A stretch of 64,000 bases of DNA from positions 374,864 to 438,863 of the forward strand of contig DATMON010000004.1 of assembly GCA_035568175.1 (NCBI GenBank), given 5' to 3'. This document shows, in pieces, positions 508 to 61,822 of the stretch. A program made the translations under genes and the position numbers. The DNA comes from Chthoniobacterales bacterium (GTDB taxonomy: Bacteria > Verrucomicrobiota > Verrucomicrobiia > Chthoniobacterales > UBA10450). Below the pieces are notes generated by a model. It was not told the origin of the DNA. It saw nothing but the letters and a program-made list of their open reading frames with translations, and ran no database searches. The stretch's first letter is position 1; each line of letters opens with the position of its first letter.

Positions 508-1305
508 TCACATCAGCTCGTACGATAACACGCTCAGACAATAGATCGCGGCTGTTTCAACACGAAGAATAATCGGTCCGAGCGTAATCGGCAGACAGCC
601 GTTGGTTTTGGCCAGGGCTAATTCTGCCGGAGTGAAATCGCCTTCCGGGCCAACCAGCATCAAAACATTTCTCGGGCGATGTCGATGCTGCTCGGAATAA
701 TCAGCGAGGATCTTCTTCAAATGAATGGCGTCTGGTTGGAGCGAGCCGATTAAACGAAGGTCTAACTGTGGTGGCAGCCGTCCCAGCTGCGATTCTGAAC
801 GCGATGCAGGCGAGACGCCTGCCTCCACAGAAGAAAAGAAATCCTTCAACTTTCGCGGCGCGTGCACTTGCGGCAGCCAGTTTTGTCCACATTGCTTGGC
901 CGCTTCGATTGCGGTCTGCTCCCATTTCGTCCTTTTATGTTCCGCTTCTTTCGGACCAAGATCGACAATTGTGCGCTCGGAAATGAGCGGCGCAATTTCA
1001 GCCGCCCCGATTTCGACCGCCTTCTGCACGATCAAATCCATATTTTTCCCTTTTGGAATCGCTTGTCCGAGCGTGATCCGGCAATGCAATGGTGGCGTTT
1101 CAGTTTCCTGTAACCGGCGAAGACGAATTTCGTCGCCGGAAAGATCGACAATCTCGGCGGTGATCTCGCGTCCCTGTCCGTTGAAGAGAACTGCGCGATC
1201 TCCGCGCTTCAGCCGTAAAACATCGCGGGCATGATGCGCTTCCGCTCCGCCCAAACTCAAAGCGCCTGGATTCCAATTCTCGGGCGCGATATAGAAACGA
1301 TACAT
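508..1305 (-). CDS. rsmE: 16S rRNA (uracil1498-N3)-methyltransferase RsmE
   Basis: 265 aa. N-terminus 'MYRFYI...AHHARDVLRLKRGD' and C-terminus 'GPEGDFTPAE...LGPIILRVETAA' are typical RsmE motifs. It lies downstream of dnaJ, as in many bacteria. Confidence 0.85.
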   Translation of the reverse strand: MYRFYIAPENWNPGALSLGGAEAHHARDVLRLKRGDRAVLFNGQGREITAEIVDLSGDEIRLRRLQETETPPLHCRITLGQAIPKGKNMDLIVQKAVEIGAAEIAPLISERTIVDLGPKEAEHKRTKWEQTAIEAAKQCGQNWLPQVHAPRKLKDFFSSVEAGVSPASRSESQLGRLPPQLDLRLIGSLQPDAIHLKKILADYSEQHRHRPRNVLMLVGPEGDFTPAELALAKTNGCLPITLGPIILRVETAAIYCLSVLSYELM

Positions 1306-1477
1306 GTCGATGTCTGATTACATCAAACATCGAGCCGCAAACATCAAACACTCCTGTCGCTATTCGACTTTGGGCGTGTCGGTGCCAAGAGCGTCGGCCA
1401 GGTCCTTAGGCGCGAGCGCCGCACTCCACAAGTTGGCAAACAACGATCTTCGACCCTGAAGTGTCGATCGGACGCCT

Positions 1478-2242
1478 TTATTTCTCGCCGTGAAAACTGT
1501 TGGTAATGTCGCGCAATTCCTGGTTTTGCTTCGGCCAACGGGACTTTGTCGTCCAAGCAACGATTTGTTGAAAATAATCGCCATCGTCCACGGTGGTATG
1601 AAGAAAAACCAGATTGGTTCTCTGCTGCGTACCGCTGACTTCGTCCTGCAAGGCGGCGTGTCCATCAATGGTAAGCGGGACCGTTTGCGTGGATGATGCG
1701 TTCTGCATGCTCTGTAACTTCCGGTCCCGCGCGGTTTGATGCCGTTGTTCCAGAGTCATTCCTTCGACCGCAGACTTTGCGTCGGTGAATACCATCAGAT
1801 ACATGTCCTTGCTTTTGTTCGCGACTTGCAACCTCGCCTCTTTGTTGAGTTCCAACGTTTTCACCCAAAACCCCGAAGTCGTGACCTCCAATTTGCCGTC
1901 CTCAGAGGCAATCTGCTGGCGTTCGACTGCGAGATCGTGCAGACGCCCGCGCTCTCCCTGAATCATCCCGACTAGAAACCAAACCTGTAGTACCGCCCAT
2001 GGAATCGCGAGATAACCGACAATGAGCCCAGCGATCGCAATTTCTTTTCCGCAAAGCGCGCCGCCCGATTTGCTAATCTTCGACCATGCGACATGGCCAC
2101 AAACAATCGCTGGAATCACGGGGAAAATCGGGATACAGGCAAACGAAAGAATCGCCAAAACCAGACTGACAATGGCAAGCAGGGCAGTACGAGGCGCCGC
2201 TGGAGGAACTGCCGATTGCGGCGATACAACTTGGTCGGCCAT
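1478..2242 (-). CDS. Membrane protein with a DUF4190-like N-terminal TM region and a soluble C-terminal domain
   Basis: 254 aa. Two to three hydrophobic helices ('LLAIVSLVLAILSFACIPIFPVIPAIVCGHVAW', 'IAIAGLIVGYLAIPWAVLQVWFLVG') precede a hydrophilic domain. No family was recognised for the C-terminus. Confidence 0.55.
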   Translation of the reverse strand: MADQVVSPQSAVPPAAPRTALLAIVSLVLAILSFACIPIFPVIPAIVCGHVAWSKISKSGGALCGKEIAIAGLIVGYLAIPWAVLQVWFLVGMIQGERGRLHDLAVERQQIASEDGKLEVTTSGFWVKTLELNKEARLQVANKSKDMYLMVFTDAKSAVEGMTLEQRHQTARDRKLQSMQNASSTQTVPLTIDGHAALQDEVSGTQQRTNLVFLHTTVDDGDYFQQIVAWTTKSRWPKQNQELRDITNSFHGEK

Positions 2243-2308
2243 CGCGCCGTTTTAGCGCATGGCAAAGCAAAAGCAAGACGTCGGGCCGGCGCGAATCCGG
2301 TCGAGACG

Positions 2309-3451
2309 TCAGTGAAAAAAATCCTTCGCCCGTTCGAAAAAGCTTTTACGGAGCGGCGTGTTTTCTTCCCCACACAAATCGGCAAACTCCTGCAGCTTCG
2401 CGCGCTGCTCGGCGTTGAGTCGCGTCGGGACTTCCACCATGACTCGGACAAGAAGATCGCCGCGCTCGCGCCCGTTCACATGAACTACGCCTTTGCCGCG
2501 GAGCTTAAACATCTGCGCGCTCTGCGTGCCGGCTGGAATTTTCAGATTGGCTTTTCCTTCCAACGTCGGCACTGGGACTTCGCCGCCGAGTGTAGCCAGT
2601 GAAAATGGAATTGGGACCTCGCAGTAGAGATTGTCTTCGTCGCGTTGGAAAATCTTGTGCTCTTGAATGTGGACGACGACGTAAAGATCGCCCTGCGGCC
2701 CGCCGCGAATGCCAGCTTCGCCGTTGCGCGATGAGCGAAGCCGCGACCCATCGGCAATCCCGGCGGGAATCTTCAACTTTATTCGGCTCGCTTTTTCGAT
2801 GCGGCCTTCGCCACCACATTCGCGACATGGTTTTTCGACAATCTGACCAACGCCGCGGCAACGCGGACAGGTCTGCGAGACCTGGAAAAATCCGCGGGAG
2901 CTGATGACCTGACCTCGACCGCCACAAACAGGACAATTGATGCTGCGCGACCCGGGCTCGGCTCCACTTCCGCCGCACTTGTCGCAGCCATCGAGTTTTC
3001 GAACTTCGATTTCTTTTTCTGCGCCGAAGGCCGCTTCTTCCAGCGTGATTTGCATGTCGTAACGCAAATCCGCGCCACGTTGTCGATCTTCTGCACGACC
3101 GGCGACGCCGCCGAAGAATGTTTCGAAAATACCTCCACCAATTCCTCCTCCGCCGCTGAAAACTTCACGGAAAATATCAAACGGGTCGTGAAACCCGCCG
3201 CGGAAACTCCCACCCTGTTCAAACGCGGCGTGACCGAAACGATCGTAAGCGGCGCGCTTGTCCGGATCGATCAGGACGTCGTAGGCCTCACCCAGCTCCT
3301 TGAATTTTTCCTCCGCGTGCGGGTCGTCAGGATTTTTGTCCGGATGAAACTTAACCGCCAGCTTGCGATAAGCGCGTTTAATCTCCTCTTCGGACGTACT
3401 ACGGCTAATTCCGAGAACTTCGTAGTAATCTCGTTTTTCTGTTGTCGCCAT
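2309..3451 (-). CDS. dnaJ: Molecular chaperone DnaJ
   Basis: 380 aa. J-domain '[33 protein letters not shown]', a G/F-rich region and four CxxCxGxG zinc-finger repeats. Confidence 0.95.
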
Positions 3452-6099: not shown

Positions 6100-6729
6100 C
6101 TACTCCCACATATAGGAGTGCGTTTCCGCCACGATCGTGCCGTTTTCAATCAGCAAACAACGCCATGCCGTTACTCGCCCGTCGTCGAAGTAATCGTCCC
6201 CAACCACTTTGAACGCCGTTTTATGGCTCCCGCGCGCGTTCGAATACGAAATTTCCTGGGCCTGAACATGGGCATGCAGTTTCTCCTGCTTGTACTCCAG
6301 TCGTACGGTTAGATCAGCTGGACGGCGCGCCTTCCAGAAGAAATCGAAATAATTCCCCATCCGCTCGCGCTGATCGAGCTTGGTCACCGCGCCGAAAAGC
6401 CGGTACTGTCTTTCGAAGCGGATCGAAGCGTCCTGGACCGTGGTCGTTTTACTGGAAGGCGCAGTGCCCGACAGTTTTCCTCCCTTGCCCGTGGCCTGAG
6501 AAGTTTGGTCGCCGGTGTTTTTCGCCTGGCCGGGGACCTCCTCGGTTAAAAGAAAGAGTTTCGTCTTTCGAAACTGGAAATCGTCGCTCAAAGCCGCCGG
6601 TAGCGGAACGACCCGATCGAGCAGGCGGGGTTGCTCCGCCGGGCGACCGAATCCATTCGCCAGCGGAATCAGAGCCAACCATGCGATTAACAACCTCACG
6701 CCTGTTAATGAAACCGGTTCCGCTTTCAC
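6100..6729 (-). CDS. Secreted hypothetical protein
   Basis: 209 aa. Signal-peptide-like N-terminus 'VRLLIAWLALIPLANG'. No family recognised. Confidence 0.45.
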   Translation of the reverse strand: MKAEPVSLTGVRLLIAWLALIPLANGFGRPAEQPRLLDRVVPLPAALSDDFQFRKTKLFLLTEEVPGQAKNTGDQTSQATGKGGKLSGTAPSSKTTTVQDASIRFERQYRLFGAVTKLDQRERMGNYFDFFWKARRPADLTVRLEYKQEKLHAHVQAQEISYSNARGSHKTAFKVVGDDYFDDGRVTAWRCLLIENGTIVAETHSYMWE

Positions 6730-6824
6730 CTGTCAATTCGCAGCAGTGGGAACGGTCCGAGCCGGACTGGCAGTTATCAAACCAATCCAACTTTCGCACG
6801 AGAGGTCAGCGCGTAAATTTGCCG

Positions 6825-9560
6825 ATGATCGAAGTCCGCTACGACCAGGGAGTTTATCTGCCCGTGTCCGACCTGTGGCTCGATCCGTGGGAAGCCAAGC
6901 GGTTCGCTTTTGTGTCGCACGCGCACAGCGATCACATCGCGCCGCATGAAGAGATTGTTCTTTCCGAGCGCACTGCGCGTTTGCTCCAGGCGCGGATGCC
7001 CGGAACCCGAACCGAACATGTCCTGCCGTTCGGCGAACCACACCGCGTCCACGATGTCGATCTAACGCTGCTGCCGGCCGGTCATATTTTTGGCTCGGCT
7101 CAGTTGCTTCTCGCGACCGAAGACGAAACCCTGCTTTACACCGGCGATTTCAAATTGTGTCATGGAAAATCAGCCGAAGCAGCAGAATGGCGTCAGGCCG
7201 ACACGTTGATCATGGAAACGACGTTCGGTTTGCCGCATTACCAATTTCCGCCGACCAAACAAGTGATTACGCAAATCGTCGGGTTCTGCCGGAATGCGAT
7301 CGAAGAAGGCGCCGTGCCGGTCCTCCTCGGCTATTCGTTAGGCAAAGCCCAGGAGATCTTGTGTTCGCTCGAGGGCGCGGGACTGACGCCGATGTTGCAT
7401 GGCTCCGTTTATAAAATGACGCGTATTTACGAACAATTCGGGCAGTCGTTCTGCAAATACGTCCGTTACAACAAGAACAACCTTGCCGGCAAAGTGCTGA
7501 TCTGTCCGCCAAGCGCGAGTCATTCGCCGATGATCGAGAAAATTCCGCGCAAACGCGTCGCGATGATCACCGGTTGGGCAGTCGATCCGAATGCGATTTA
7601 TCGCTATCAGGTCGATGCCGCCTTTCCGCTTTCCGATCATGCCGACTACAACGATCTCATCCGCTATGTCGATCTTGTGCAACCGAAGCGCGTGCTTACC
7701 CTTCACGGCTTTGCCGCCGAGTTCGCGCGCGATTTGCGCGAGCGCGGAATCGAAGCTTGGGCGTTGAGCGAAGAAAATCAGATGGAACTGAAATTGCCAA
7801 AGAGCGTTGTAGCTGCCGGTGTCCCCACCGGCAGTTTTGTAAATCTGCCGCCGGAGACGGCGGCAGCTACACCATCCGAGTTTTTGGATTTCGCCAATGT
7901 CGGCGAGTCAATCGCCGCCACGGCGGCGAAATTAGAGAAAGTGCGCCTGCTCAGCGAATATTTGCGCAACCTGAACAGCGAGCAGTTACCGGCCGTAACG
8001 ACTTACCTGACCGGACGCGCATTCGCCCAGAGCGATTTACGAACATTGCAAGTTGGCTGGGCCGCAATTTATCGCGCGCTGCTCGCCGCCACAAAAATCA
8101 GTGAGAGCGAATTTCATCGTATCGCCGCGACTCACGGCGATCTCGGCAAGACTGCATTCGAAGTTCTCGAAGGACGAACGAAGCCGCAGCCATTTTCAAT
8201 TTTGGAATCCTGTGACTTGTTCGAAAAATTGCATCGCGCGCGCGGACCGATCGCAAAAACGAAACTTCTGCAAACGCGCTTTGCCAATTTATCGGCGCGT
8301 GAAGGTCAATACGTGGTCAAGATTTTGACCGGCGATCTTCGGATTGGGTTACGCGAGGGACTGGTGGAAGAAGCGATCTCGCGCGCGTTCGAAGTTCCAC
8401 TCGAGGAGGTCAAGGAAGCGAACATGTTGCTCGGCGATGTCGGCGCCACGGCATCGCTTGCGTCGGAAAAACAACTGGACCGCGCGGAGTTGTCGATCTT
8501 TCGCCCGATCAAATGCATGCTCGCGACCCCGGAGCCGACCGCGGAAGCGATTTGGGAGCGATTTCGCGACGAGGCCGAAGGGGCAGCAGTTGCAACCGTT
8601 TTCGTCGAAGACAAATTCGACGGCATTCGCGCGCAGCTGCATCGGGATTCCAAACGCGCCGAAATTTATTCGCGCGACCTGCGGCTCATCACCGATCAAT
8701 TTCACGAGCTGGCCGAACAGGCGCGCAAGTTCGATGTCGATCTTATCCTTGATGGCGAGATCGTTGCGTTTGAGCAGGGGCGCAGGCTGACGTTTTTCGA
8801 TTTGCAAAAACGGCTCGGCCGAAAAACGGACGGTGCGGATTTATTTGCAACGGCATCGGCCGATGTTCCAGTTGCGTTTATCGCCTTCGACTTGCTCTGG
8901 CTCAACGGCCGGTCGCTGCTGAAGACCGCGCTCCAGGAACGGCGCGAACTGCTGCGCGGTTTAAAATTACCGGCGCAATTTCAAACCGCAGAAGTTTTTC
9001 CCGCGCATTCAGCCACGGAAATCGACGAACGTTTTCAGCAAGCCCGGCGGCGATTAAATGAGGGCCTGATGGTCAAAGATCCGAACAGCTTCTACACGCC
9101 GGGGGCGCGTGGAATGTTTTGGTTCAAACTAAAGAAAGAACTCGCCACGCTCGACGTGGTGGTAGTCGGCGCGGAATTCGGTCACGGCAAACGCAACAAG
9201 GTGTTGAGCGATTATACTTTTGCAGTGCGCGATGAAACGAGCGGCGACCTTCTGCCGATCGGCAAGGCTTACAGCGGCCTGACCGATGTCGAGATCGCGG
9301 AGCTGACCGAGCACTTCAAACAAAACACGATCGTCGATGACGGTCGATATCGTGAAGTGAAGCCAGATACGGTTCTCGAAATCGCGTTTAACTCGATTCA
9401 GCCGAGTACGCGCCATGCGAGCGGACTGGCGCTGCGCTTTCCGCGCATCAAGGCGATTCGGCGGGACAAAAATGTCGATGCGATCGACACCCTGACCTAC
9501 GCACGCGAACTTGCGGCGCAGGCGGCACGAGCAGGCGTAGATGGAGCTACTAAGGCGTAG
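6825..9560 (+). CDS. Fusion protein: MBL/beta-CASP 'ligase-associated' exonuclease + ATP-dependent DNA ligase
   Basis: The ORF track gives 6681-9560. I prefer the ATG at 6825 ('MIEVRYDQG..'), which removes the overlap with the divergent gene. The N-terminal half has HxHxDH ('SHAHSDHI', near 6918) and the beta-CASP end '..LHGFAAEFARDLRERGIEAWAL'. The C-terminal half has ligase motif I 'EDKFDGIRAQL' (Lys codon at 8613) plus the OB-fold region 'WFKLKKE..LDVVVVGAEFGHGKR'. Confidence 0.85.
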   Translation: MIEVRYDQGVYLPVSDLWLDPWEAKRFAFVSHAHSDHIAPHEEIVLSERTARLLQARMPGTRTEHVLPFGEPHRVHDVDLTLLPAGHIFGSAQLLLATEDETLLYTGDFKLCHGKSAEAAEWRQADTLIMETTFGLPHYQFPPTKQVITQIVGFCRNAIEEGAVPVLLGYSLGKAQEILCSLEGAGLTPMLHGSVYKMTRIYEQFGQSFCKYVRYNKNNLAGKVLICPPSASHSPMIEKIPRKRVAMITGWAVDPNAIYRYQVDAAFPLSDHADYNDLIRYVDLVQPKRVLTLHGFAAEFARDLRERGIEAWALSEENQMELKLPKSVVAAGVPTGSFVNLPPETAAATPSEFLDFANVGESIAATAAKLEKVRLLSEYLRNLNSEQLPAVTTYLTGRAFAQSDLRTLQVGWAAIYRALLAATKISESEFHRIAATHGDLGKTAFEVLEGRTKPQPFSILESCDLFEKLHRARGPIAKTKLLQTRFANLSAREGQYVVKILTGDLRIGLREGLVEEAISRAFEVPLEEVKEANMLLGDVGATASLASEKQLDRAELSIFRPIKCMLATPEPTAEAIWERFRDEAEGAAVATVFVEDKFDGIRAQLHRDSKRAEIYSRDLRLITDQFHELAEQARKFDVDLILDGEIVAFEQGRRLTFFDLQKRLGRKTDGADLFATASADVPVAFIAFDLLWLNGRSLLKTALQERRELLRGLKLPAQFQTAEVFPAHSATEIDERFQQARRRLNEGLMVKDPNSFYTPGARGMFWFKLKKELATLDVVVVGAEFGHGKRNKVLSDYTFAVRDETSGDLLPIGKAYSGLTDVEIAELTEHFKQNTIVDDGRYREVKPDTVLEIAFNSIQPSTRHASGLALRFPRIKAIRRDKNVDAIDTLTYARELAAQAARAGVDGATKA
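7808..7871. repeat. REP-like palindromic element (copy e), translated in frame as the exonuclease-ligase linker
   Basis: TGTAGCTGCCGGTGTCCCCACCGGCAGTTTTGTAAATCTGCCGCCGGAGACGGCGGCAGCTACA. It has an 11-bp perfect terminal inverted repeat and two internal 9-bp stem-loops (CTGCCGGTG/CACCGGCAG and CTGCCGCCG/CGGCGGCAG). Confidence 0.75.
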
Positions 9561-11662: not shown

Positions 11663-12310
11663 CTATCGATGTCGATCTTGCCGGCGCAAATCTTCTTCGG
11701 TCAACTGCAACGCTGCGATCGAATCCATCACCCGTTGGCTCAACCGCGCGTAAAGATCTTTACCGCCGGTGGTAAGATCTGCATCCGAGAAATAAATCGG
11801 CTCACCAACTACGATCGTGATTTTACGCCACAAATGAATCCTTCCGTGGATCGGCCAGGCATCGAACGCGCCGAAAATACGCATCGGCACAACCGGTGCG
11901 TGCGTTTTCGCGATGAGCAAGCCCAGACCCGCCGCGGCGGGCTGCAGATTCCCGTCTGGCGTGCGCGAGCCTTCTGGAAAAACCAATGCGCACTCGCCCG
12001 CGCTCAGGATTCGAATCAACGCTTTCAGCGCGCTTCGGTCACCGCCTTGCAAATTGACTGGAACGACGTTGAGCTTGGGTAAAAGCCAGCCGAGCACCGG
12101 TATATTCATCAACGATTTTTTCGCCAGAAAATAAATAGGCCGATCGCAAGCGTTACCGGCCAGCGGTGGATCGAAAAAACTTTGGTGATTTATGGCCAGA
12201 ATCACCGGCCCGGTCTGAATGACGCGCTCCCGGTTGATAATTCGGAACCCGAAAAACAACTGCGCGAGTAACCGACTGAGATGGTAACCGAGCCAGTAGT
12301 AAAAATTCAT
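11663..12310 (-). CDS. plsC: 1-acyl-sn-glycerol-3-phosphate acyltransferase
   Basis: 215 aa. HX4D motif 'NHQSFFDP' and 'VFPEGSRTPDG' are typical of the PlsC/LPLAT family. Confidence 0.8.
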   Translation of the reverse strand: MNFYYWLGYHLSRLLAQLFFGFRIINRERVIQTGPVILAINHQSFFDPPLAGNACDRPIYFLAKKSLMNIPVLGWLLPKLNVVPVNLQGGDRSALKALIRILSAGECALVFPEGSRTPDGNLQPAAAGLGLLIAKTHAPVVPMRIFGAFDAWPIHGRIHLWRKITIVVGEPIYFSDADLTTGGKDLYARLSQRVMDSIAALQLTEEDLRRQDRHR

Positions 12311-12334: not shown

Positions 12335-12991
12335 TTAAACCGCTAAATTTCTTCCGCGCAATCGGTTAACGATTTCATCTACGACCTGCTCGACGGTGAG
12401 ATTTGAGGTATCAATCACTTCGGCGTCTTCGGCGACGACGAGCGGAGAAGCGGCGCGCGACGAATCGGCTTGATCGCGGCGCGCGATTTCGTCGCGATGT
12501 CCCTGGGCGGCGCGCCGTTGAGCACGCACTTCGGGCGACGCATCGATGTAAAACTTATAGGGCGTTTCTGAAAAAACTACCGAGCCAATGTCGCGACCTT
12601 CAACGACCAGGTCATGCTTGTTCGCGTAATCGCGCATTCTCCGCACAAGAATCTCGCGAACTTCCGGGACCGTGCTCACGCGCGACACTTCGCTGTTCAC
12701 GCGATCTTCGTGCAGATGTTCCGTTAGATCGACATTGTCGATCAAAAGGTGAAGTTCCCGGTCCTTCAACACGCCACCCACCGACAAAGTCGCGATTAGT
12801 TCCGCGATCCGACGTTCGTCTGACGGATCGATACCAGCTTTAAGCACCGACCAGGTGACAGCGCGATACATCGCACCGGAATTGACGTAAACGAAGCCAA
12901 GACGACGCGCCAGCTGACGGGCTACGCTGCTCTTTCCCGAAGCGGCCGGACCGTCGATGGCGATTACACGATGTCGATCTTGTGCTTGCAT
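12335..12991 (-). CDS. cmk: Cytidylate kinase
   Basis: Start taken at the ATG at 12991 ('MQAQDRHRVIAIDGPAASGKSSVARQLA'; P-loop GPAASGKS). The longer track ORF, extending to 13291, would overlap aroA. Confidence 0.9.
   Translation of the reverse strand: MQAQDRHRVIAIDGPAASGKSSVARQLARRLGFVYVNSGAMYRAVTWSVLKAGIDPSDERRIAELIATLSVGGVLKDRELHLLIDNVDLTEHLHEDRVNSEVSRVSTVPEVREILVRRMRDYANKHDLVVEGRDIGSVVFSETPYKFYIDASPEVRAQRRAAQGHRDEIARRDQADSSRAASPLVVAEDAEVIDTSNLTVEQVVDEIVNRLRGRNLAV
12725..12745. repeat. Back-to-back inverted pair of the hyper-abundant 10-mer (degenerate copies) inside cmk
   Basis: TAGATCGACA-T-TGTCGATCAA, a near-perfect 21-nt palindrome. See the first finding. Confidence 0.6.
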
Positions 12992-13049
12992 CTGTGACTG
13001 CGCGCGACGCGCAGTTTTTCGCGGAACGCGTGGGGAAGCAAGCGCTTGA

Positions 13050-38989: not shown

Positions 38990-39011
38990 TATTAAATCGC
39001 TTCCGGTAACA

Positions 39012-39818: not shown

Positions 39819-39833
39819 GAGTCGTTGTCGATC

Positions 39834-45837: not shown

Positions 45838-45876
45838 GACCCGGAGACGATATAAGCGCGGCGGTTCGAATCAAAC

Positions 45877-46563: not shown

Positions 46564-46568
46564 AGTTT

Positions 46569-46622: not shown

Positions 46623-46668
46623 GGAAATCATCGCCGGTTTGTGTGGTTAGGCCACCAGATTTAAGTTG

Positions 46669-47676: not shown

Positions 47677-47764
47677 TATTTGGGACACGGCAGCGCGTGT
47701 CCCTCCAAACAGATGTCAATCAAGGGTTGATTGCGCCGCGATTTGGCTTTCAGTTCTGTCCGCT

Positions 47765-52708: not shown

Positions 52709-53527
52709 ATGAAAGATCGACAACGGAGCCGGCGGGAGCCGGACGACGACGACGGGGAAGCCCGAGAGAGTTGGCGAGTCGGGCCCCGAGCCAATCAACG
52801 TCCACCTGTGCTCATCATTGGGGCGCATCGCTCGGGCACGACCGCGACTGCTCGGGCGCTGGAACTGCTCGGATTACAAATTGGCGAGCATCTCGATAGC
52901 CATCGCGAGCCGCGACCGTTGCAAAAATTGCATGAGGACTATCTGCACCGAACTGGAGCAGCCTGGCATCATCCGCAACCATTTTTAAAATGGATCGAGT
53001 CGGCGGAAGGAAAGCAGGATTGCATCTCCTACCTGCGGTCGAATATCCGCCGCGATTTCGCTCGGATCTTTGGCTATCGCTTCAATCCGAAAGGACTTTG
53101 GCTCCGAGCCCGGCTCAACTTCGGCGCGAAGTGGGGTTGGAAAGAGCCGCGGACGACGTTATTCGCTCCCGCCTGGCTCGAAATTTTTCCGGCGGCGCGA
53201 ATCGTGCATGTCATTCGCGACGCACACGCGACAGCATCAAGCATTCGAGAACGCGAATTGAAATTTCAAGCCGCGGGCGATCCACCCACGCCCAATCTCG
53301 CGGACTTCGATTACTGCAGGCAACTTGTTCAAACCTATCTCACAGCCGGAGAGCGGCTCGCCCATTCTGCGAATTATCAGCGGGTTCAGTTTGAGGACCT
53401 CCAGGCAAATCCGCCAGCGATGCTCGAGCGACTGGCAAATTTCTGCGGCTTGCGCGTTACCACGCGAGAATTGGCCGGCGCGGCGGCCAGCATCCGACCG
53501 GCACGCGTTAGATCGACATCGTCCTAA
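52709..53527 (+). CDS. Sulfotransferase-family protein
   Basis: 272 aa. 'LIIGAHRSGTTATARAL' (PSB loop) and 'IVHVIRDAHATASS'. Confidence 0.75.
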   Translation: MKDRQRSRREPDDDDGEARESWRVGPRANQRPPVLIIGAHRSGTTATARALELLGLQIGEHLDSHREPRPLQKLHEDYLHRTGAAWHHPQPFLKWIESAEGKQDCISYLRSNIRRDFARIFGYRFNPKGLWLRARLNFGAKWGWKEPRTTLFAPAWLEIFPAARIVHVIRDAHATASSIRERELKFQAAGDPPTPNLADFDYCRQLVQTYLTAGERLAHSANYQRVQFEDLQANPPAMLERLANFCGLRVTTRELAGAAASIRPARVRSTSS

Positions 53528-54256: not shown

Positions 54257-55294
54257 TCAATCTGCGGACTGAAGTCTGTTTAAGTTGCATGTCACTAGCG
54301 TGCCGCCGTCTCGGTTGTGTGTGATGGCAAGTTTGCCTCCAATTAAGGAGGCGCCGTGCGCCATCAAGCGCAGACCAAGGCCAGGCGGCTCAGGAAGTTT
54401 TTCCGGGAATCCATTGCCGTCGTCCGAGACCACAAGTGTCAGTTTCTGGCCGTTTCGCGCAAGCTCGATGTCGATCTTACTCGCGCCGGAATGCTTGACT
54501 GCGTTCATCACCGCTTCCTGGGCGATGTGATAAAGTTGGGTGGCCGTTGTCGCGTCGCCTACGTGGACGGCACCATCGCCATTGAAGGTGCACGGAACTC
54601 TAAATCGTTCGCTAATGTTTACGGCCAGACCATTCAGGGCGACGTCCAATCCATCAGCTTCAAGTTCCGGTGAAAAGAAACCGCGCGCGAGGTTCCGAGT
54701 AAGATCAATTCCCTCCTCGATGTAATGCACGACCTTGTCGGCCTCTGCCACTTCCGCGGCCGATCGATTAGCGAGTTTTTCGCGAAGGACTTGCGCAACC
54801 AGTGCCGTCCCGGTCAAATGTTGGCCGAGACTGTCATGTAAATTTTGGCCGAGCCGCCGACGCTCGCGGTCAGCCACTCCCGCGATCTCCTGATCAAGGC
54901 GTTCGCGCTCTGCCATTTCGCGTTTGAGCGCCGCCGTGCGATCGCGCACACGTTGGTCGAGTTCATCCAAGAGGGTGCGCAGCTTTGAAAGCAGGCCGGT
55001 AAAGACAGCGTACGACCCAAGTGCCATCCCGATATTCCACAAGCCCACAGTCGGCACGCCAGCCGCAACATCGGAAGTTACCCAAGCTAAGATGCTTAAC
55101 ACCGAAAAGGTGAAGCCTAACCAAAAACCTCCGAACCATGTCCCAAGCGCAATCGGAACAAGATAAAACAGCAGAAATGTTTGTTCGTAGCCGGTGAGAT
55201 AATCCACATATCCAAGGCCAGCGGTGATGACGACGCAAACAGTTACAAGTGCAAGCCGCGATGAGAGATGATTTCGCCAGCGCAATCGAGTCAT
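54257..55294 (-). CDS. Membrane sensor histidine kinase (HisKA_3, NarX/DegS type)
   Basis: H-box 'LHDSLGQHLTG' and an HATPase domain '..NAVKHSGA..DDGNGF..GLGLRLM', with N-terminal TM helices. The start is ambiguous: ATG at 55294 or 55348. Confidence 0.85.
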   Translation of the reverse strand: MTRLRWRNHLSSRLALVTVCVVITAGLGYVDYLTGYEQTFLLFYLVPIALGTWFGGFWLGFTFSVLSILAWVTSDVAAGVPTVGLWNIGMALGSYAVFTGLLSKLRTLLDELDQRVRDRTAALKREMAERERLDQEIAGVADRERRRLGQNLHDSLGQHLTGTALVAQVLREKLANRSAAEVAEADKVVHYIEEGIDLTRNLARGFFSPELEADGLDVALNGLAVNISERFRVPCTFNGDGAVHVGDATTATQLYHIAQEAVMNAVKHSGASKIDIELARNGQKLTLVVSDDGNGFPEKLPEPPGLGLRLMAHGASLIGGKLAITHNRDGGTLVTCNLNRLQSAD

Positions 55295-55486
55295 GTTCAG
55301 GGACGGTGCAAACAATGCGTTCGGTGCAACATACGCCAGCGTTCGCATTACTCCATTGAACCCGATCTACCGAAAACGTTCACATATTTTTCGCGTAGGG
55401 CTCTGTATCACAAACGATTCGGGCCGCAGATTCGCGAGCGGGGTGATCTTGCCGACGAAGCTCGGGCGGCGTATGTTTGGCGCAAT

Positions 55487-55840
55487 GGGGGCGCACTGGT
55501 TTCGACTCATCGTTGGAAGCACAGGCGGCATGTCGAGGATGGTTCGTTGGCCTCGTAAAAAACCGAGCCAAAACAAATAAACGCAGATCACCAAGATCTC
55601 GCTCTCGCGGCTTAATTGACCGTGACGTTTGGAGCTGGACGCCTGCTACGGCGCCAAACGTGGACAGCAGGCTAATCGCACGGCGGAGTGACCGCGCCGG
55701 ACGGTGAAGGAAATTCGTGGACGCTCGGAAGTCGGCAGTGTGCCGGTGCAACGCCGGCTTCTCAAAAATCTCACCGGATAAACATGTAGATGTTTGCGTG
55801 GATAGCGACGAGGACAGGGGTTCAACTCCCCTCGCCTCCA
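55487..55840 (+). ncRNA. ssrA: tmRNA (SsrA), tag reading frame 55583-55615 encoding ADHQDLALAA
   Basis: The 5' GGGGGCG pairs with the 3' CGCCUCC, including the G3:U pair. Other elements are 'GGUUUCGAC', 'GGCCUCGUAAAAA', the resume codon GCA, 'GCUCUCGCGGCUUAA' and the T-arm 'GGGGUUCAACUCCCC' plus discriminator A. CCA is not encoded (AAAA follows). Confidence 0.9.
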
Positions 55841-55963
55841 AAAATCCGTTCTTTTGAGTTGGTGTGCAATTTTCTTGCAGCGGTGGAAAATAAAGCTTCA
55901 CATGGGGCGGTTCATCGTGCTATAACAACTATAAATCCCATAACAACTATCGCTCCCGTTTCC

Positions 55964-56413
55964 ATGAACTATCGCGTCCTCGGTAAAGTATCTTATCACT
56001 CCGCCATCTTGCTCGCCTGTGTCACCCTCAGTTGCCGCCCGCAGCAAGCAGTCATTCTTTCCCCGAGTGACACTGACCTCGTCGTCTTGAACGGTTGCGT
56101 TATTTCGGCCTGCAATTATCTGGCCGTTGTTAAGACCCAGCACGCGCTCGACAAGAATTTTTGGGCAAAAATTCTCCTCGTCCGCTACAACGATCATCCC
56201 GCCGGCCACGCTTATTGCGTGTGGGAAACTGACGGTACCATTTACGGCTACGACCGGAACGCCGGTTCGTTTCCGATTCCCGTTTACACGCGCGACGCAC
56301 GCGCCATTGCCATCGTTTTGGCTCAGGAACTGGGAAAAGTCATGAACGAGCCGCTTTCCGTCGACCGCGCAGAGTTCGTCGAATCGCAGCGCTCCCAGGT
56401 CTACAAATTCTAG
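55964..56413 (+). CDS. Lipoprotein, possible Cys/His/Asp papain-like fold (hypothetical)
   Basis: The ATG at 55964 gives the lipobox 'ACVTLSC'. Ordered 'NGCVISACNY', 'AGHAYCVWE' and 'YGYD' suggest a thiol-hydrolase triad. This is inference only. The longer track ORF starts inside the tmRNA. Confidence 0.45.
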   Translation: MNYRVLGKVSYHSAILLACVTLSCRPQQAVILSPSDTDLVVLNGCVISACNYLAVVKTQHALDKNFWAKILLVRYNDHPAGHAYCVWETDGTIYGYDRNAGSFPIPVYTRDARAIAIVLAQELGKVMNEPLSVDRAEFVESQRSQVYKF

Positions 56414-56432: not shown

Positions 56433-57038
56433 TCACGGTTTGTCGCCCCAGGTTTTCTTGTGGAACGACGCGCGGCCCGACCCTTGTTCGAAGGCTTCGA
56501 AGTGTTCTGGGTTCTGCTGATAATACTTCTGATGAGAATCCTCGGCCGGATAGAACTTCATCGCCGGTAAAATTTCGGTCGCGATCGGTTTCTTGAATTT
56601 GCCGGACTGACCCAGCTTTTCTTTCGACATTTCCGCGATCTTTTTTTCCTCATCGCTTTCATAAAAGATTGCGGCGCGATAACTTGGACCGATATCGGTG
56701 AATTGCCCGTCGGATTGCGTCGGATCAATTTGCTTCCAATAGATATCGAGCAGCTGCTCGTAAGAAATTTTTGCCGGGTCGTAAACGATTTGGATTGATT
56801 CACGGTAGTTTGTTTTCTCGGAGCCAACGAGCTGGTAAGTGGGGTTCGGCTCCGTCCCGCCGCAATAACCGACGGTCGTCTTGATTACGCCTGGGGCTTT
56901 GTCGAATGCGGGCTGAATGCACCAAAAACAACCGCCCGCGAAAACGGCCGTCTTGGTTGTGCTGGGCGAACTTTGAGCCGGCGAAAGATCGACAACGAAG
57001 GCCAGACACGCCCCGACCAAGAGATAAACAAGTTTCAT
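56433..57038 (-). CDS. msrA: Peptide-methionine (S)-S-oxide reductase MsrA, exported form
   Basis: The ATG at 57038 gives a signal peptide 'MKLVYLLVGACLAFVVDLSPAQS'. Active site 'FAGGCFWC' and 'GYCGG'. Confidence 0.9.
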   Translation of the reverse strand: MKLVYLLVGACLAFVVDLSPAQSSPSTTKTAVFAGGCFWCIQPAFDKAPGVIKTTVGYCGGTEPNPTYQLVGSEKTNYRESIQIVYDPAKISYEQLLDIYWKQIDPTQSDGQFTDIGPSYRAAIFYESDEEKKIAEMSKEKLGQSGKFKKPIATEILPAMKFYPAEDSHQKYYQQNPEHFEAFEQGSGRASFHKKTWGDKP

Positions 57039-57157
57039 ATTGTCGATCTTAGACAATGTCTTCCAAGACGCGTTGCGAAATACCCCGTTTTTCTCTTGCC
57101 AGCCACTGGTGCCAACTGCCATAAGCCTACGTCTTCAACCAATAGGAGGTCCTCACT

Positions 57158-57593: not shown

Positions 57594-58175
57594 GTGATCG
57601 AACTGATCCCGGAGACATACGTCGCGCCGCTCGACTTGCTCGCGATCTTTGGACGCGTCGCGCCATTACAGGTCGACCTTGGCTGCGGTAATGGCTCGTT
57701 CTTGTCCGAACTGGCGCAACGTCATCCGGATAAGAATTTTCTCGGCATCGAGCGACTGGTTGGACGCGTAGCTAAGGCGTGTCAGAAAGCAGGCGCACTC
57801 GGAAACGTCCGCATATTGAATGTCGAAAACTCTTACGCCGTCGGTTACTTGCTTCCCGAAGGATCGGTCGAAACATTTTATTTATTGTTTCCCGATCCCT
57901 GGCCAAAACGCCGGCATCATCGCCGCCGAATCGTTAAACCAGATTTTCTCGATGCCATTCACCATGCGCTTGAGGACGATGGTTCTCTCCGCATCGCAAC
58001 CGATCAACTGGATTATTTCGATCTAATCCAACGTGTTAGCGAAGATCATTCCGGCTTCGCGATTGCCGATGGCGGAGATGTCGATCTTCCATCGACGAAG
58101 TTCGAGCGAAGATTCATCGCGCTCGGCGCGCCCATTTATCAGTTGGCGCTGCGAAAAATCTCACCGGTCAAGTAA
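57594..58175 (+). CDS. trmB: tRNA (guanine46-N7)-methyltransferase
   Basis: 193 aa with a GTG start. 'VDLGCGNGSFL' and 'LFPDPWPKRRHHRRR' are TrmB hallmarks. Confidence 0.85.
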   Translation: MIELIPETYVAPLDLLAIFGRVAPLQVDLGCGNGSFLSELAQRHPDKNFLGIERLVGRVAKACQKAGALGNVRILNVENSYAVGYLLPEGSVETFYLLFPDPWPKRRHHRRRIVKPDFLDAIHHALEDDGSLRIATDQLDYFDLIQRVSEDHSGFAIADGGDVDLPSTKFERRFIALGAPIYQLALRKISPVK

Positions 58176-60424
58176 GCTCGCGCTTCCCATTTTTGTTGAC
58201 CGAATTCCAATTCCACCGCGCCGGTTTCGTCCTGCCGAAACAGTTTGATCCCACGCGCCCGGACCCGCTCGGCCCATTCATCTGAAATTCGTTCTTGTTC
58301 GGGAAAATCGCGCGAGGTTGCCACGATTAATCGCGGTTGCACGGCGTCGAGAAAATTGTCCGAGCCGGAACCACCCGAATGGTGCTGTCCTTTGACCACA
58401 ATATCGCTGCGCAAATCAACGCCCGACTCGACCAATGATTTTTCCGTCGCGTCACCGCTATCGGACGTAAAAAGAATCTTCGCGTTTTTGATCGAGAGCT
58501 GAACGACCAAAGCTTGATCGTCGGCTGTAGTCCCAGTGAAATCCGTTTGCGGAAACAGAATGCGTCCGGTCACGTTGGACGTGATGTGAAAGTCCTCACC
58601 TGTTTTCGGATTGAGGAGGTTCAATCGATGAGTTGGAAGCATTCCGCGAAGCCGCCGATGAACGGTTGAACGGTCGGCCGCCGGATTGTCGATCAAAACT
58701 GCCGGAACCAAATCGCGCAAAAGATTCTCCGCGCCGCCAATGTGCAGCGAATCCCCGTGTGTCAATAAGAGTCCGCTGATTCGGTTAATTCCCGCCACGT
58801 GTAAATACGGCCGAAGGACGCGCTCGTAATCACGGCCGCTGCCGCAATCGAAAAGCCAATCGACACGTGAAGCACGAAGATGGACGGCCGCGCCGGCTCC
58901 GACGTCCAGCACGGTGATTTTCGCGTGCAATTTTTTCGGCCAACCAGGTTCCGCGACGTAACAATGACTTCCCGGAATTTGCGCAAACCATTGGACGAAT
59001 GCGATCACCGCCGCGGCGAGCAACCAGTTTGCATTATTGAAAATGAGCGAAACTCCCGCAGCAACCGGCGCCGCTGCCAGCGAAAGCAGCGCAATCGCTA
59101 AAATGAAAAATGCCATCGGCACCACGAGCAGATTCGCGAAGAGCGAGCTTGGCGTGATCAGATGAAAATACCAGAAAATCAGTGGCAAAGAACCGAGCCA
59201 GGCCGCCAGAGAAACCGAGCCGCCGCGGCAAATCCATTCGTAGCCGACTCCAATCATGCGTCGGAGGCTGCTGACCAGCCGCCGCGGCAGGAACGGATCA
59301 GGCGCGCCAATTGGTCGAAGCCATCCAGAAAGCGGATCGGCCAATAAAATGATTCCGCCCACGACCGCGAACGAAAGCTGAAATCCCGTGGAGAAGAGTT
59401 CGTTCGTGTTCCAGGAGAGAAGAAAAAATGCGGCCGCGGCCAGACTGTTCAGCGCGAAGACTTTTCGTTCGAAGAAAAAGCCACCGAGCAGAATCGAGCT
59501 CATCACCGCGGCGCGAATGCTGGAAACATGCAGGCCTGTCACCGCTGCATAAAAAAGTAACAACGGAACGATGAGTGCCGTCGCCCATTTCCGGGAAAGC
59601 CTTGCCATCATCGCCAGGATCCACAAAAGGCGCGCGACGATTCCGACGTGCAACCCGGCAACCGCGAACAGATGAAGCGTTCCTGTTTGCTGAAACGGTT
59701 CCTCGATATCTTCCGGCGTTTGATGGCGCAACCCCAGAACCATGCCGCTCAGGAAATTTTGGACCTGCGGTGAATCGTCGAGTCCGCGACAAATCGCGCT
59801 CTGCATCCACGCACGCGATTTTTGCGCGGCTCGCAGAACCGGGTTTCGCGCGCCGCGTTTCAGTAAAGCGCCGTCTTCCGGATAGCGAACAAAGAGACTT
59901 CGCCTCACGTCCTGACGCGCGAGATAGGAACGCATATCGAACTCGCCCGGATTTCGAGGCGGCTCGATCGGCTCCGCTATTCCAAACATTTTCAGTTCGT
60001 CGCCAAATTCCGGATTGCCGTGCCAGCGCGCGAGCAACGTTGCATGAGTCGGCCTCGTTTTACCTTCGAACTCGAGTGATTGAAGCTTGAACAGAAACGT
60101 CGCGAATCCGTTCGGCGCTACTTTTGGCTCCGACGTCACGAATCCGACCGCGCTCACGACGCGCGGCCGATCGCTCAGATCAGCTGCGAGTTGCAGGCCC
60201 GGCGTGTCGCCGGTTCGAAAATTGTGGAGCAAAAAGAAACCGGCGCCGACGAGAAAATATGTCGACGTAAGGTTTGGCCAGCAAAAGGACGCAATTGCCA
60301 GCAGAGTGAGCGCGATCGTACTGAGCCACCATCGAGACGCTCCGATTGGAAGAAAATCCGCAATGATAATTCCAAGCCCCGCCATCAACGCCAGCCCGAC
60401 AAATGGTTGTCGCGGTGTATTCAT
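58139..60424 (-). CDS. comEC: ComEC/Rec2 DNA-internalisation channel protein with a C-terminal MBL domain
   Basis: 761 aa. An N-terminal OB/DUF4131 region, the polytopic 'Competence' domain, and the C-terminal 'VLDVGAGAAVHL...LLLTHGDSLHIGG'. Confidence 0.85.
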   Translation of the reverse strand: MNTPRQPFVGLALMAGLGIIIADFLPIGASRWWLSTIALTLLAIASFCWPNLTSTYFLVGAGFFLLHNFRTGDTPGLQLAADLSDRPRVVSAVGFVTSEPKVAPNGFATFLFKLQSLEFEGKTRPTHATLLARWHGNPEFGDELKMFGIAEPIEPPRNPGEFDMRSYLARQDVRRSLFVRYPEDGALLKRGARNPVLRAAQKSRAWMQSAICRGLDDSPQVQNFLSGMVLGLRHQTPEDIEEPFQQTGTLHLFAVAGLHVGIVARLLWILAMMARLSRKWATALIVPLLLFYAAVTGLHVSSIRAAVMSSILLGGFFFERKVFALNSLAAAAFFLLSWNTNELFSTGFQLSFAVVGGIILLADPLSGWLRPIGAPDPFLPRRLVSSLRRMIGVGYEWICRGGSVSLAAWLGSLPLIFWYFHLITPSSLFANLLVVPMAFFILAIALLSLAAAPVAAGVSLIFNNANWLLAAAVIAFVQWFAQIPGSHCYVAEPGWPKKLHAKITVLDVGAGAAVHLRASRVDWLFDCGSGRDYERVLRPYLHVAGINRISGLLLTHGDSLHIGGAENLLRDLVPAVLIDNPAADRSTVHRRLRGMLPTHRLNLLNPKTGEDFHITSNVTGRILFPQTDFTGTTADDQALVVQLSIKNAKILFTSDSGDATEKSLVESGVDLRSDIVVKGQHHSGGSGSDNFLDAVQPRLIVATSRDFPEQERISDEWAERVRARGIKLFRQDETGAVELEFGQQKWEARAYLTGEIFRSAN

Positions 60425-60486
60425 CGCAAGGGGAGAACTCGTCCGTTACGTAATACGGCGTCTGGCGGGCAAAGTTCCCTAGTCGT

Positions 60487-60543
60487 TGTAGCCACGCGCC
60501 TGTGGCGCGTCGGACTGGATGGCCCATTGGGGGCGTGGCTACA
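60487..60543. repeat. REP-like palindromic element (copy c), comEC/rarA divergent intergenic region
   Basis: TGTAGCCACGCGCCTGTGGCGCGTCGGACTGGATGGCCCATTGGGGGCGTGGCTACA. It has an 11-bp perfect terminal inverted repeat and an inner stem ACGCGCC-TGT-GGCGCGT. It shares 'GCGTCGGAC' with the reverse complement of copy a. Confidence 0.75.
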
Positions 60544-60583
60544 CGCAGATGCACAATTCGTCGGCTCGTCGTATTTTCTATTC

Positions 60584-61822
60584 GTGCAGGATTTGTTTAC
60601 CGAGGAAGACCGCGATTCTGTTAAGGGCAACCCGCCTGAGGCGGGCGCGCCGCTGGCGACGCGAATGCGGCCGCGGTCGCTCGATGAATTTGTCGGCCAG
60701 GAACATATTCTTGCGCCTGGAAAATTGCTGCGCCGCGCGATTGAAGCCGATCGTTTGCCCTCGGTGATTTTATCGGGGCCGCCCGGAACCGGAAAAACCA
60801 CACTCGCTCACATCATCGCCGACATGACGCGCGCCAAGTTTGTGCGTTTAAGCGGCGTAGAAAGCAACGTCGCGGAAATGCGTCGCGTGATCGCGGGCGC
60901 GACCAATCGCACTCGCAGTTCTGGACAAAAGACGATTTTGTTCATCGACGAGATACATCACTTCAACAAAGCGCAGCAGGACATTCTCCTGCCCGATGTC
61001 GAAAGCGGAAACCTGCGACTGATCGGCGCGACCACTTACAATCCGTTTTTCTACGTCAACAGTCCGCTCGTCTCGCGGTCACAAGTTTTCCAACTCGAAC
61101 CGTTGCGTGTCGAGGAACTGGAAGAACTGATTGATCGCGCGCTGGTCGACAAGGAACGCGGACTTGGCAATTACAACGTGAAGATCGACAAAGATGCGAG
61201 AAAGCATCTGGCCAAGCTGAGCGACGGCGACGCGCGCAAATGTTTAAACGCGCTGGAGATTGGCGTCATGACCACGCCGCCTGAAACTGTAGCGGCGGTC
61301 TATGACCGCCAGCAGAAAAAGACCGGCGCTGACACGGCGTCGCTACAGCAGTCAGTGATTCATTTCACGATCGCGGTTGCGGAAGAAAGCATTCAGCAGA
61401 AAGCAATCGTGTACGATCGCGCTGGGGATGCGCATTACGACACGATCAGCGCGTTTATCAAGAGCATGCGCGCGTCCGATGAGAAAGGCGCGATGTACTG
61501 GCTCGCGAAAATGCTACACGCCGGCGAAGACTTTCGTTTCATCGCGCGCCGGATCGTGATTTTTGCGAGCGAAGACGTTGGCCTGGCCGATCCAGAAGCG
61601 CTCCCGCTCGCAATCGCCACCCAGCAAGCGGTCGAATTCGTCGGCTTGCCGGAAGCAAAGATTCCGCTCGGGCATGCGGTCGCGTACATGTGCCGCGCCA
61701 AAAAAAGCCGCGAAGCCTACGACGCGCTGAACGAAGCGACCGAAAAAATCGAAGCCGAACAAACCAAGCGCGTCCCCGAAAATCTCAAAAACAAACACTT
61801 TCCGGTGAATCCGGAGAAGTAA
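60584..61822 (+). CDS. rarA: Replication-associated recombination protein A (RarA/MgsA AAA+ ATPase)
   Basis: 'PLATRMRPRSLDEFVGQEHIL', Walker A 'GPPGTGKTT', Walker B 'ILFIDEIHHFNK' and 'YDRAGDAHYDTISAFIKSMR'. The GTG at 60584 is preferred; the track ORF start at 60080 overlaps comEC. Confidence 0.85.
   Translation: MQDLFTEEDRDSVKGNPPEAGAPLATRMRPRSLDEFVGQEHILAPGKLLRRAIEADRLPSVILSGPPGTGKTTLAHIIADMTRAKFVRLSGVESNVAEMRRVIAGATNRTRSSGQKTILFIDEIHHFNKAQQDILLPDVESGNLRLIGATTYNPFFYVNSPLVSRSQVFQLEPLRVEELEELIDRALVDKERGLGNYNVKIDKDARKHLAKLSDGDARKCLNALEIGVMTTPPETVAAVYDRQQKKTGADTASLQQSVIHFTIAVAEESIQQKAIVYDRAGDAHYDTISAFIKSMRASDEKGAMYWLAKMLHAGEDFRFIARRIVIFASEDVGLADPEALPLAIATQQAVEFVGLPEAKIPLGHAVAYMCRAKKSREAYDALNEATEKIEAEQTKRVPENLKNKHFPVNPEK
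61287..61348. repeat. REP-like palindromic element (copy d), translated in frame inside rarA
   Basis: CTGTAGCGGCGGTCTATGACCGCCAGCAGAAAAAGACCGGCGCTGACACGGCGTCGCTACAG. It has an 8-bp terminal inverted repeat and an inner stem GGCGGTC-TAT-GACCGCC. It encodes '..TVAAVYDRQQKKTGADTASLQQ..'. Confidence 0.7.

Follow-up and report, generated by a model that had tools for sequence, protein, structure and literature searches.

A hyper-abundant 10-mer with the signature of a DNA uptake sequence in core genes of Chthoniobacterales (Verrucomicrobiota)

Genes of the window and copies of the word

The stretch of DNA analyzed here (64 kb of contig DATMON010000004.1 from a Chthoniobacterales bacterium, hereafter the window) is a segment of core chromosome that carries dnaJ/grpE, aroA, cmk, panC, nadB, a gene for a nuclease-ligase fusion, and lipid A genes, together with msrA, transfer-messenger RNA (tmRNA), trmB, comEC, rarA, and fabF. 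Scattered through it is a short asymmetric word, TGTCGATCTT on one strand and AAGATCGACA on the other, which was found in 32 exact copies (15 on the plus and 17 on the minus strand), or one 10-mer per ~2 kb. The word had been picked out in a preliminary description of this DNA made from the sequence alone, and an exact count reproduced all of the coordinates listed there. Until now, only the DNA uptake sequences (DUS) of Neisseria and the uptake signal sequences (USS) of Haemophilus have been known to bear its statistical signature.

In a gene model that was checked with Pfam and comprises 58 genes over 94% of the window, 30 copies (29 in the preliminary description) lie in coding sequences and 2 between genes, which matches the 6% noncoding fraction. 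Twelve copies are read in the sense direction as V-D-L. These lie in an RNA methyltransferase gene (508-1305, minus strand; copies at 958-967 and 1141-1150, both minus and both I-V-D-L), the nuclease-ligase fusion gene (6681-9560, plus; 7667-7676, Y-V-D-L, and 8735-8744, D-V-D-L, both plus), panC (24337-25371, minus; 24502-24511, T-V-D-L, and 24904-24913, N-V-D-L, both minus), a methyltransferase gene (25161-25856, minus; 25671-25680, minus, I-V-D-L), a lipid A acyltransferase/heptosyltransferase gene (26657-28675, plus; 28132-28141, plus, D-V-D-L), another methyltransferase gene (45877-46563, minus; 46129-46138, A-V-D-L, and 46237-46246, N-V-D-L, both minus), msrA (56433-57122, minus; 56985-56994, minus, V-V-D-L), and a trmB-like gene (57594-58175, plus; 58079-58088, plus, D-V-D-L). 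A second sense frame, read as S-I-F or S-I-L, accounts for seven copies, which are found in the same fusion gene (8491-8500, plus, L-S-I-F), in the lipid A acyltransferase/heptosyltransferase gene (28659-28668, plus, M-S-I-L), in a PMT-family glycosyltransferase gene (29061-30899, plus; 29809-29818, plus, M-S-I-F), in a DUF2752 gene (31906-32331, minus; 32063-32072, minus, L-S-I-F), and in a gene for a YfhO-like membrane protein (42716-44896, minus; 43719-43728, M-S-I-F, 44229-44238, M-S-I-L, and 44508-44517, L-S-I-F, all minus).

The remaining coding copies are antisense to their genes. Five, one more than the preliminary description had counted, are read as K-I-D, in panC (24663-24672, plus, K-I-D-I), an SCP2 gene (38588-39085, minus; 38737-38746, plus, K-I-D-N), a histidine kinase gene (54257-55348, minus; 54469-54478, plus, K-I-D-I), msrA (57041-57050, plus, K-I-D-N), and rarA/mgsA (60080-61822, plus; 61181-61190, minus, K-I-D-K). 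Five others are read as D-R-Q or D-R-H, in dnaJ (2309-3451, minus; 3081-3090, plus, E-D-R-Q), an acyltransferase gene (11663-12310, minus; 11670-11679, plus, Q-D-R-H), cmk (12335-13291, minus; 12972-12981, plus, Q-D-R-H), the start of an open reading frame (ORF) at 37578-38591 (plus; 37588-37597, minus, Q-D-R-Q), and the start of a sulfotransferase gene (52709-53527, plus; 52713-52722, minus, K-D-R-Q). A single copy, in a polysaccharide deacetylase gene (19189-20040, plus; 20004-20013, minus), is read as A-R-S-T. Outside the genes, one copy (19142-19151, minus) lies between 17107-19047 and 19189-20040, and the other (39826-39835, plus) lies at the boundary between 39012-39818 and 39834-41255, both on the minus strand. 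Apart from the two counts corrected above, the earlier tally of frames (V-D-L 12, S-I-F/L 7, D-R-Q/H 5, R-S-T 1) stood.

The only competence-related gene in the window is comEC (58139-60424, minus), for the DNA import channel; this assignment, made in the preliminary description, was confirmed by matches to the Pfam families Competence, DUF4131, and Lactamase_B. Its product had no exact match in a contig index; in a homology search, its best named relatives were in metagenome-assembled genomes (MAGs) of soil Chthoniobacterales. Relatives were compared at 80 loci (1.21 Mb) from Chthoniobacterales and "Candidatus Udaeobacter" MAGs whose ComEC is 61 to 85% identical to that of the window, obtained by an alignment-based scan with one genome per species; with the window they make up 1.27 Mb of ComEC neighborhood sequence. 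Every relative retrieved has an intact comEC gene, as does the window.

The true core of the word is the 8-mer TGTCGATC, which with 58 copies (0.9/kb, against 0.5/kb for the 10-mer) is the commonest 8-mer in the window; k-mer ranking shows the core growing from these 58 copies through TGTCGATCT (39 copies) to TGTCGATCTT (32 copies). The 26 further core copies, which differ at positions 9 and 10, are spread from 330 to 62817 (examples start at 7055, 12727, 12736, 17079, 32983, 34103, 36285, 39167, 41088, 47989, 53511, 58687, and 62810). A logo built from 137 nonredundant copies of the window and its relatives reads R(-2) W(-1) TGTCGATCTT G(+10) C(+11) and holds no information outside positions -2 to +11; AT-rich phased flanks were likewise not found in it. 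Since the flanks are unrelated beyond these positions, the word is not embedded in a longer repeat, as had been claimed from inspection. Nor does it have the makeup of an element of the repetitive extragenic palindromic (REP) or miniature inverted-repeat transposable element type, which would be extended, mostly intergenic, and dyad symmetric, as 30 of the 32 copies are in coding sequences and nothing is conserved outside -2 to +11.

Perfect copies outnumber one-mismatch copies. The window holds 21 one-mismatch copies of TGTCGATCTT (~5 expected from shuffles) against the 32 perfect copies, although 30 different one-mismatch words are possible. All 15 one-mismatch copies reported earlier are real, with one position, given as 6050, corrected to 6040. 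In two dense loci of the relatives (L066 and L072), which together hold 33 perfect copies, each of the five commonest one-mismatch words listed occurs no more than twice.

A few variants of the word were also seen. Four window copies, at 7055, 12725, 36283, and 53509, belong to a subvariant, TGTCGATCTAACG, and ACG follows in 9 of the 18 copies of TGTCGATCTA counted over the window and the loci together; these may represent a minor, longer form of the word. In cmk, 12727-12743 is a head-to-head pair of cores that forms a perfect dyad, GATCGACA-T-TGTCGATC, seen nowhere else in the window. Another 10-mer, GCCGAGCGCG, also recurs: it was counted eight times in the window (9931, 24886, 33566, 39780, 42046, 44435, 53934, and 58118), in various genes, strands, and frames, and is present in some relatives too (L001, six copies; L014 and L054, four copies each). 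Compared with the main word it is much weaker, and its recurrence may be compositional, given the CG-rich background.

Two of the word-carrying genes encode fused domains. The gene at 6681-9560 (plus), which holds three copies, encodes a 959-amino-acid fusion of a metallo-beta-lactamase/RMMBL nuclease domain with an ATP-dependent DNA ligase that is complete in its N, adenylation, and C domains, and a single ORF at 26657-28675 (plus) joins two domains, a lipid A biosynthesis acyltransferase and a family 9 heptosyltransferase. The tmRNA gene (55487-55843, plus; tag peptide ADHQDLALAA) was identified with ARAGORN and Rfam, and the long ORFs that overlap it, at 55380-55901 (minus) and at the start of 55790-56413 (plus), are probably not genes.

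Excess of the word and its imprint on proteins

The excess of the word in the window withstands every null model applied. Dinucleotide shuffling gives an expectation of 0.22 copies (maximum of 3 in 100 shuffles), and Markov models of order 3, 4, and 5 give 0.43, 0.59, and 2.8, compared with the 32 observed. A more stringent null was obtained by shuffling synonymous codons within each gene, which preserves the protein sequences and the codon counts of every gene; across 300 such shuffles 4.85 +/- 1.5 copies of the 10-mer were expected (maximum, 12), and the 8-mer core was expected 12.1 times versus 58 observed. The codon shuffle thus lifts the expectation from 0.2 to 4.9, which indicates that part of the signal is carried by protein sequence and codon usage. 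The preliminary description had proposed codon-aware and Markov comparisons as a genome-wide check, and on the scale of the window the excess survives both.

The constraint leaves its mark on the coding sequences. Five of the six reading frames are occupied, with only the sense frame C-R-S never used, and the ratio of sense to antisense copies (19:11) is not significantly uneven (p = 0.2). The tripeptides encoded by the word are written in its own codons far more often than codon usage predicts: 12 of the 23 V-D-L tripeptides are encoded as GTC-GAT-CTT (0.78 expected), and 6 of the 7 K-I-D tripeptides are encoded as AAG-ATC-GAC (0.65 expected). The tripeptides VDL, SIF, KID, and DRQ are in addition each over-represented about 3-fold relative to amino acid composition. 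Taken together, the five frames, the codon imprint, and the tripeptide excess show that the constraint acts on the DNA, as had been suggested earlier, and that the proteins have been reshaped by it.

The two orientations of the word are interleaved along the window, and the relatives' loci likewise hold similar numbers of each (92 plus and 114 minus), with no heterogeneity between loci (chi-square of 11.1 on 19 degrees of freedom). Neither the window nor any of the 19 loci that have four or more copies is skewed by strand, which bears out the earlier statement that the word has no strand polarity. The strand of the surrounding genes cannot be used as a proxy for the direction of replication, because gene-strand bias in Verrucomicrobia is ~50% (PMC11040001). 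AT skew is strongly positive (+0.09 to +0.16) at 32001-48000, a region that coincides with a run of minus-strand genes, and it probably reflects coding-strand composition rather than a replication signal.

Palindromic words do not show a comparable excess. Among palindromic octamers, neither GCGATCGC nor TCGATCGA is one of the most enriched under an order-3 Markov model. GATC, which is contained in the core of the word, is mildly over-represented (observed/expected ratio [O/E] of 1.3). Over the window and all loci, GATC and CCGG are both over-represented (O/E of 1.3 to 1.4) and CTAG is strongly depleted (O/E of 0.52).

Distribution and conservation in relatives

The word is present at 61 of the 80 loci of the relatives, with 206 copies versus the 6 to 16 expected from Markov models of order 3 to 5. 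The MAGs that carry it are independent of one another, comprising dozens of genomes from different projects and including both short-read assemblies and assemblies with Mb-scale contigs. Density differs about 50-fold between the extremes: L072 has 17 copies in 8.4 kb (2/kb) and L066 has 16 in 13.4 kb, while many Udaeobacter loci have only 0 to 0.1/kb. On long public contigs the local density is ~0.27/kb in CAWCST010000001.1 (1.9 Mb), ~0.09/kb in CAWBIP010000002.1 (4.0 Mb), ~0/kb in CAWFNX010000001.1 (1.3 Mb), and ~0.3/kb in JBBRNP010000005.1 (273 kb). Even the low-density clades (0.03 to 0.1/kb) exceed their Markov expectation of 0.005 to 0.013/kb. Density follows the ComEC tree, being high in several deep branches and low in nested subclades (e.g., L010, L011, L012, L015, and L070). 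The simplest reading of this distribution would be an ancestral word that has repeatedly decayed.

No alternative dialect of the word was found among the k-mers repeated within loci, and no one-mismatch variant is enriched in the low-density clades, where the word has simply decayed. Other recurrent 10-mers were considered as dialects and rejected. They derive from a 51-bp tandem repeat in L011 (15417-15875), apparently coding for a repetitive NT.G...NTANG protein; from a dispersed REP-like element, GTCATTCCGAGCGAAGTCGAGGAATC, present in both orientations in the low-density Udaeobacter loci L063 (12917-21772), L060, and L071, which is a repeat of another kind than the word; and from low-complexity intergenic repeats of GAATGACGAA in L062 (4616-5380). 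Three further loci (L026, L031, and L069) come from MAGs binned as Limnocylindria, Dormibacterota, and Alphaproteobacteria. Their ComEC is 64 to 65% identical to that of the window and groups with the Udaeobacter loci in the tree of ComEC; the word itself is present in two of them (L026 and L031). These contigs are probably misbinned. A scan of IMG/VR for two direct copies within 30 nt returned 38 matches, all of them chance or peptide-repeat pairs, and no motif-dense viral contig, a weak negative given the low sensitivity of the scan.

Alignment of orthologues, another check proposed in the preliminary description, addressed how copies arise and persist. Alignments of syntenic loci show no gaps at the sites of the word, and gains by point substitution can be seen at 58079, a recent gain where relatives read GATGCCGACCTT or GATGCAGATCTT, and at 56985, a lineage-specific copy absent from the closest relatives (L001 and L003). 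Copies of the word are thus not insertions. Other copies are conserved: the one at 61181 in rarA is intact in 11 relatives and the one at 57041 in msrA in 8, kept at 70 to 85% DNA identity with variable flanks on both sides, and those at 54469 (L001, L003, L012, and L014) and 52713 (L001 and L003) are also intact. Overall, the 10-mer is fully retained 2 to 6 times more often than background 10-mers of the same identity class, a figure that is indicative only because the pairs share ancestry, and the dips in identity at third codon positions are damped within the word in pairwise orthologous alignments.

Possible functions of the word

The signature common to USS and DUS was set out by Redfield et al. 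in 2006 as a density of ~1 copy per kb without bias in orientation, copies that originate in point mutations and not in insertions, an abundance of coding copies, and over-representation in related genera; a further anomalous feature, unlike ordinary protein-binding sites, is that perfect copies outnumber one-mismatch copies (PMC1626085). The word of the Chthoniobacterales shows all of these features. We therefore rank first the explanation that RW-TGTCGATCTT-(GC) tags self DNA throughout the lineage in the manner of DUS and USS, as a putative uptake or transformation-enhancing sequence that molecular drive maintains, and by analogy with those systems we would give it an even chance of being right. 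The DUS/USS-like profile proposed in the preliminary description thus holds for density, orientation, strength of consensus, substitution origin, and clade-wide sharing. The analysis establishes how the word accumulates; an uptake bias, a receptor, and a part for ComEC or for methylation of GATC are inferences.

A self-DNA tag of this kind could have accumulated as follows. The Chthoniobacterales clade would be naturally competent, and a surface or periplasmic receptor, perhaps a pilin-like or ComEA-like protein, would prefer double-stranded DNA that carries the word; alternatively, methylation of the embedded GATC might favor incoming DNA, as proposed for the highly iterated palindrome HIP1 of cyanobacteria. 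Specific receptors of known uptake sequences are ComP and, as a prediction, ComN. Fragments bearing the word would then pass ComEC, whose gene is present and whose part in uptake is a candidate role, and recombine with the homologous locus. In consequence, mutations that create the word would be over-transmitted and those that destroy it under-transmitted, a molecular drive by which the word would build up through point substitution wherever coding constraints permit. Such a drive could produce the observed codon and tripeptide imprint, the surplus of perfect over one-mismatch copies, the equal use of the strands, and the above-background conservation. Where the bias had weakened or been lost in sublineages, the word would decay, and this may be the cause of the 10- to 50-fold differences in density that are observed.

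The likeness to the USS of Pasteurellaceae (AAGTGCGGT and ACAAGCGGT) extends to detail: both are short and asymmetric, occur at about 1 per kb with no orientation bias, have perfect copies in excess of one-mismatch ones, originate in point substitution and not insertion, have many intragenic copies in a few tolerated frames with a tripeptide imprint that reshapes proteins, and are stable at orthologous positions and common to a family (PMC1626085). The word differs in that its sequence is unrelated, its host belongs to the phylum Verrucomicrobiota, and it lacks AT-rich phased flanks, a noncoding excess, and regular spacing. With the DUS of Neisseriaceae (AT-GCCGTCTGAA and its dialects, for which the receptor is ComP) it shares a 10-mer core with an informative 2-nt 5' extension (RW here and AT in DUS), occupancy of ~0.5 to 2% of the DNA, density differences of several fold between related species, and equal use of the strands (PMC3630211). 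HIP1 (GCGATCGC) is likewise hyper-abundant, with a GATC core, spread by substitution, conservation in coding and noncoding DNA, and a patchy phylogeny; it is, however, an 8-bp palindrome with methyltransferase sites and quasi-periodic spacing, while the word is asymmetric, 10 to 12 bp long, and Poisson spaced. The comparison with HIP1 made in the preliminary description is a loose one, standing for the GATC core, the spread by substitution, and the conservation, and failing for the palindrome, for enriched palindromic octamers, and for spacing. Since it is now argued that HIP1 promotes natural transformation and that this depends on methylation, the HIP1 and uptake-sequence analogies may converge.

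Several observations weigh against an uptake sequence. DUS and USS prefer noncoding DNA, and about half of DNA uptake enhancing sequences (DUES) lie in terminators, often as inverted pairs (2025 preprint); the word is 94% intragenic, with only 2 of the 32 copies intergenic and no noncoding enrichment, and a search of the arrangement of copies for a preferred pair spacing or terminator-like inverted pairs found none. The gaps between copies have a coefficient of variation of 0.96 for the 10-mer and the 8-mer core alike, which is Poisson-like and no more regular than random. DUS have dialects, whereas a single identical word is found here despite divergence of ComEC down to 61% identity, a greater uniformity than in the Neisseriaceae. 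ComEC does not discriminate, because it is near universal in bacteria and is equally intact in the low-density lineages. Finally, motif scans of the 1.27 Mb for prepilin, PilT/GspE, DprA, and ComEA signatures revealed no genes for a type IV pilus, ComEA, DprA, or a pilin-like protein, although this absence says little either way because the sequence scanned is the ComEC neighborhood only.

Of the alternatives, the one that survives best is that the word is a genome-wide site of a conserved intracellular protein, kept by ordinary selection instead of uptake drive. The protein might be a nucleoid-organizing or chromosome-maintenance factor, or the word might be a "self" mark read by a nuclease or defense system. 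The contiguous asymmetric specificity of 10 to 12 bp in the logo would suit a DNA-binding protein, as would an identical word across a deep clade, its conservation at orthologous sites, and its even spread over coding DNA without preference for intergenic regions. We nevertheless consider such a site unlikely. We know of no nucleoid protein with an exact 10-bp site at 1 per 1 to 2 kb inside genes, the copies are spaced at random rather than regularly, and a density that varies about 50-fold and approaches zero in some lineages is hard to square with an essential architectural role. The surplus of perfect over one-mismatch copies is also unlike the relaxed consensus of intracellular sites (argument in PMC1626085).

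It is rather improbable that the word is the functionless product of a mutational or repair ratchet, as in Elhai's methylation and mismatch-repair model for HIP1, in which a sequence-specific methyltransferase, a nickase, or very-short-patch-type repair would turn near matches into the word. In length and contiguity, the non-palindromic run of 10 to 12 specified bases exceeds, to our knowledge, the specificities of known methyltransferases and of Vsr, and although the core contains the mildly over-represented GATC, no palindromic octamer is enriched. Spread by substitution with conservation, as in HIP1, would fit a ratchet, but no one-mismatch neighbor is depleted, transition neighbors being at or above expectation in small numbers. 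The patchy density on the tree could track gain and loss of the enzyme; against this, the word is the same throughout a deep clade, and turnover of restriction-modification specificities is usually fast. No DNA methyltransferase, Vsr, or pilus gene came up when essentially all genes in the window were annotated with Pfam.

A polar chromosome signal, such as Chi (read by RecBCD or AddAB) or the FtsK orienting polar sequences (KOPS), is highly improbable. Like these, the word is short, asymmetric, and over-represented in a core genome. Known Chi and KOPS words are 5 to 8 nt long, replication skewed, and only modestly enriched, whereas the word is enriched more than 50-fold and unskewed in every locus (15:17 and interleaved in the window, 0 of 19 loci skewed among the relatives). 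The lack of a one-sided orientation over no more than 64 kb rules out a signal of this type, which is effectively refuted locally. That the word is an artifact, or arises from codon usage, from a peptide that recurs, from a dispersed repeat, or from adapter contamination, for which the raised codon-shuffle expectation (0.2 to 4.9) and the AGATCG shared with the Illumina adapter could be cited, is refuted by the codon shuffle (32 versus 4.85 +/- 1.5), the use of five frames in many unrelated proteins, the unrelated flanks, the gap-free orthologous alignments, and the dozens of independent MAGs.

As of 2025, uptake sequences were recognized only in two proteobacterial families, Neisseriaceae and Pasteurellaceae, with HIP1 under discussion as a third case. 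Full-text literature searches for the word itself returned primers only, and such searches found no prior description of uptake sequences in Verrucomicrobia, Udaeobacter, or Chthoniobacterales or of DUS-like or USS-like signals elsewhere. What is new here is the phylum in which this hyper-abundant, uptake-sequence-like word occurs, its unrelated sequence, and its almost wholly intragenic distribution. Should the word instead be a product of repair or a binding site, there would still be unexplained biology in how an exact 10-mer comes to be written into coding DNA once per 2 kb.

In a third lineage, unrelated to the other two, the word may mark self DNA for natural transformation. We give somewhat less than even odds to the reading that it is the first DNA uptake (self-recognition) sequence outside the Proteobacteria; Chthoniobacterales would then be naturally transformable with a preference for RW-TGTCGATCTT-tagged DNA, the receptor would be unrelated to ComP, and the 50-fold differences in density would reflect gains and losses of specificity. 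If the word is such a tag, it would be of practical use as a taxon-specific k-mer with which to bin contigs and to detect misbinned ones, and it would suggest a design rule for the delivery of DNA to these organisms. The uncultured Chthoniobacterales, relatives of "Candidatus Udaeobacter," are among the most abundant soil bacteria, and such a tag in them would suggest that self-biased transformation extends further than has been assumed and operates in a dominant uncultured soil lineage.

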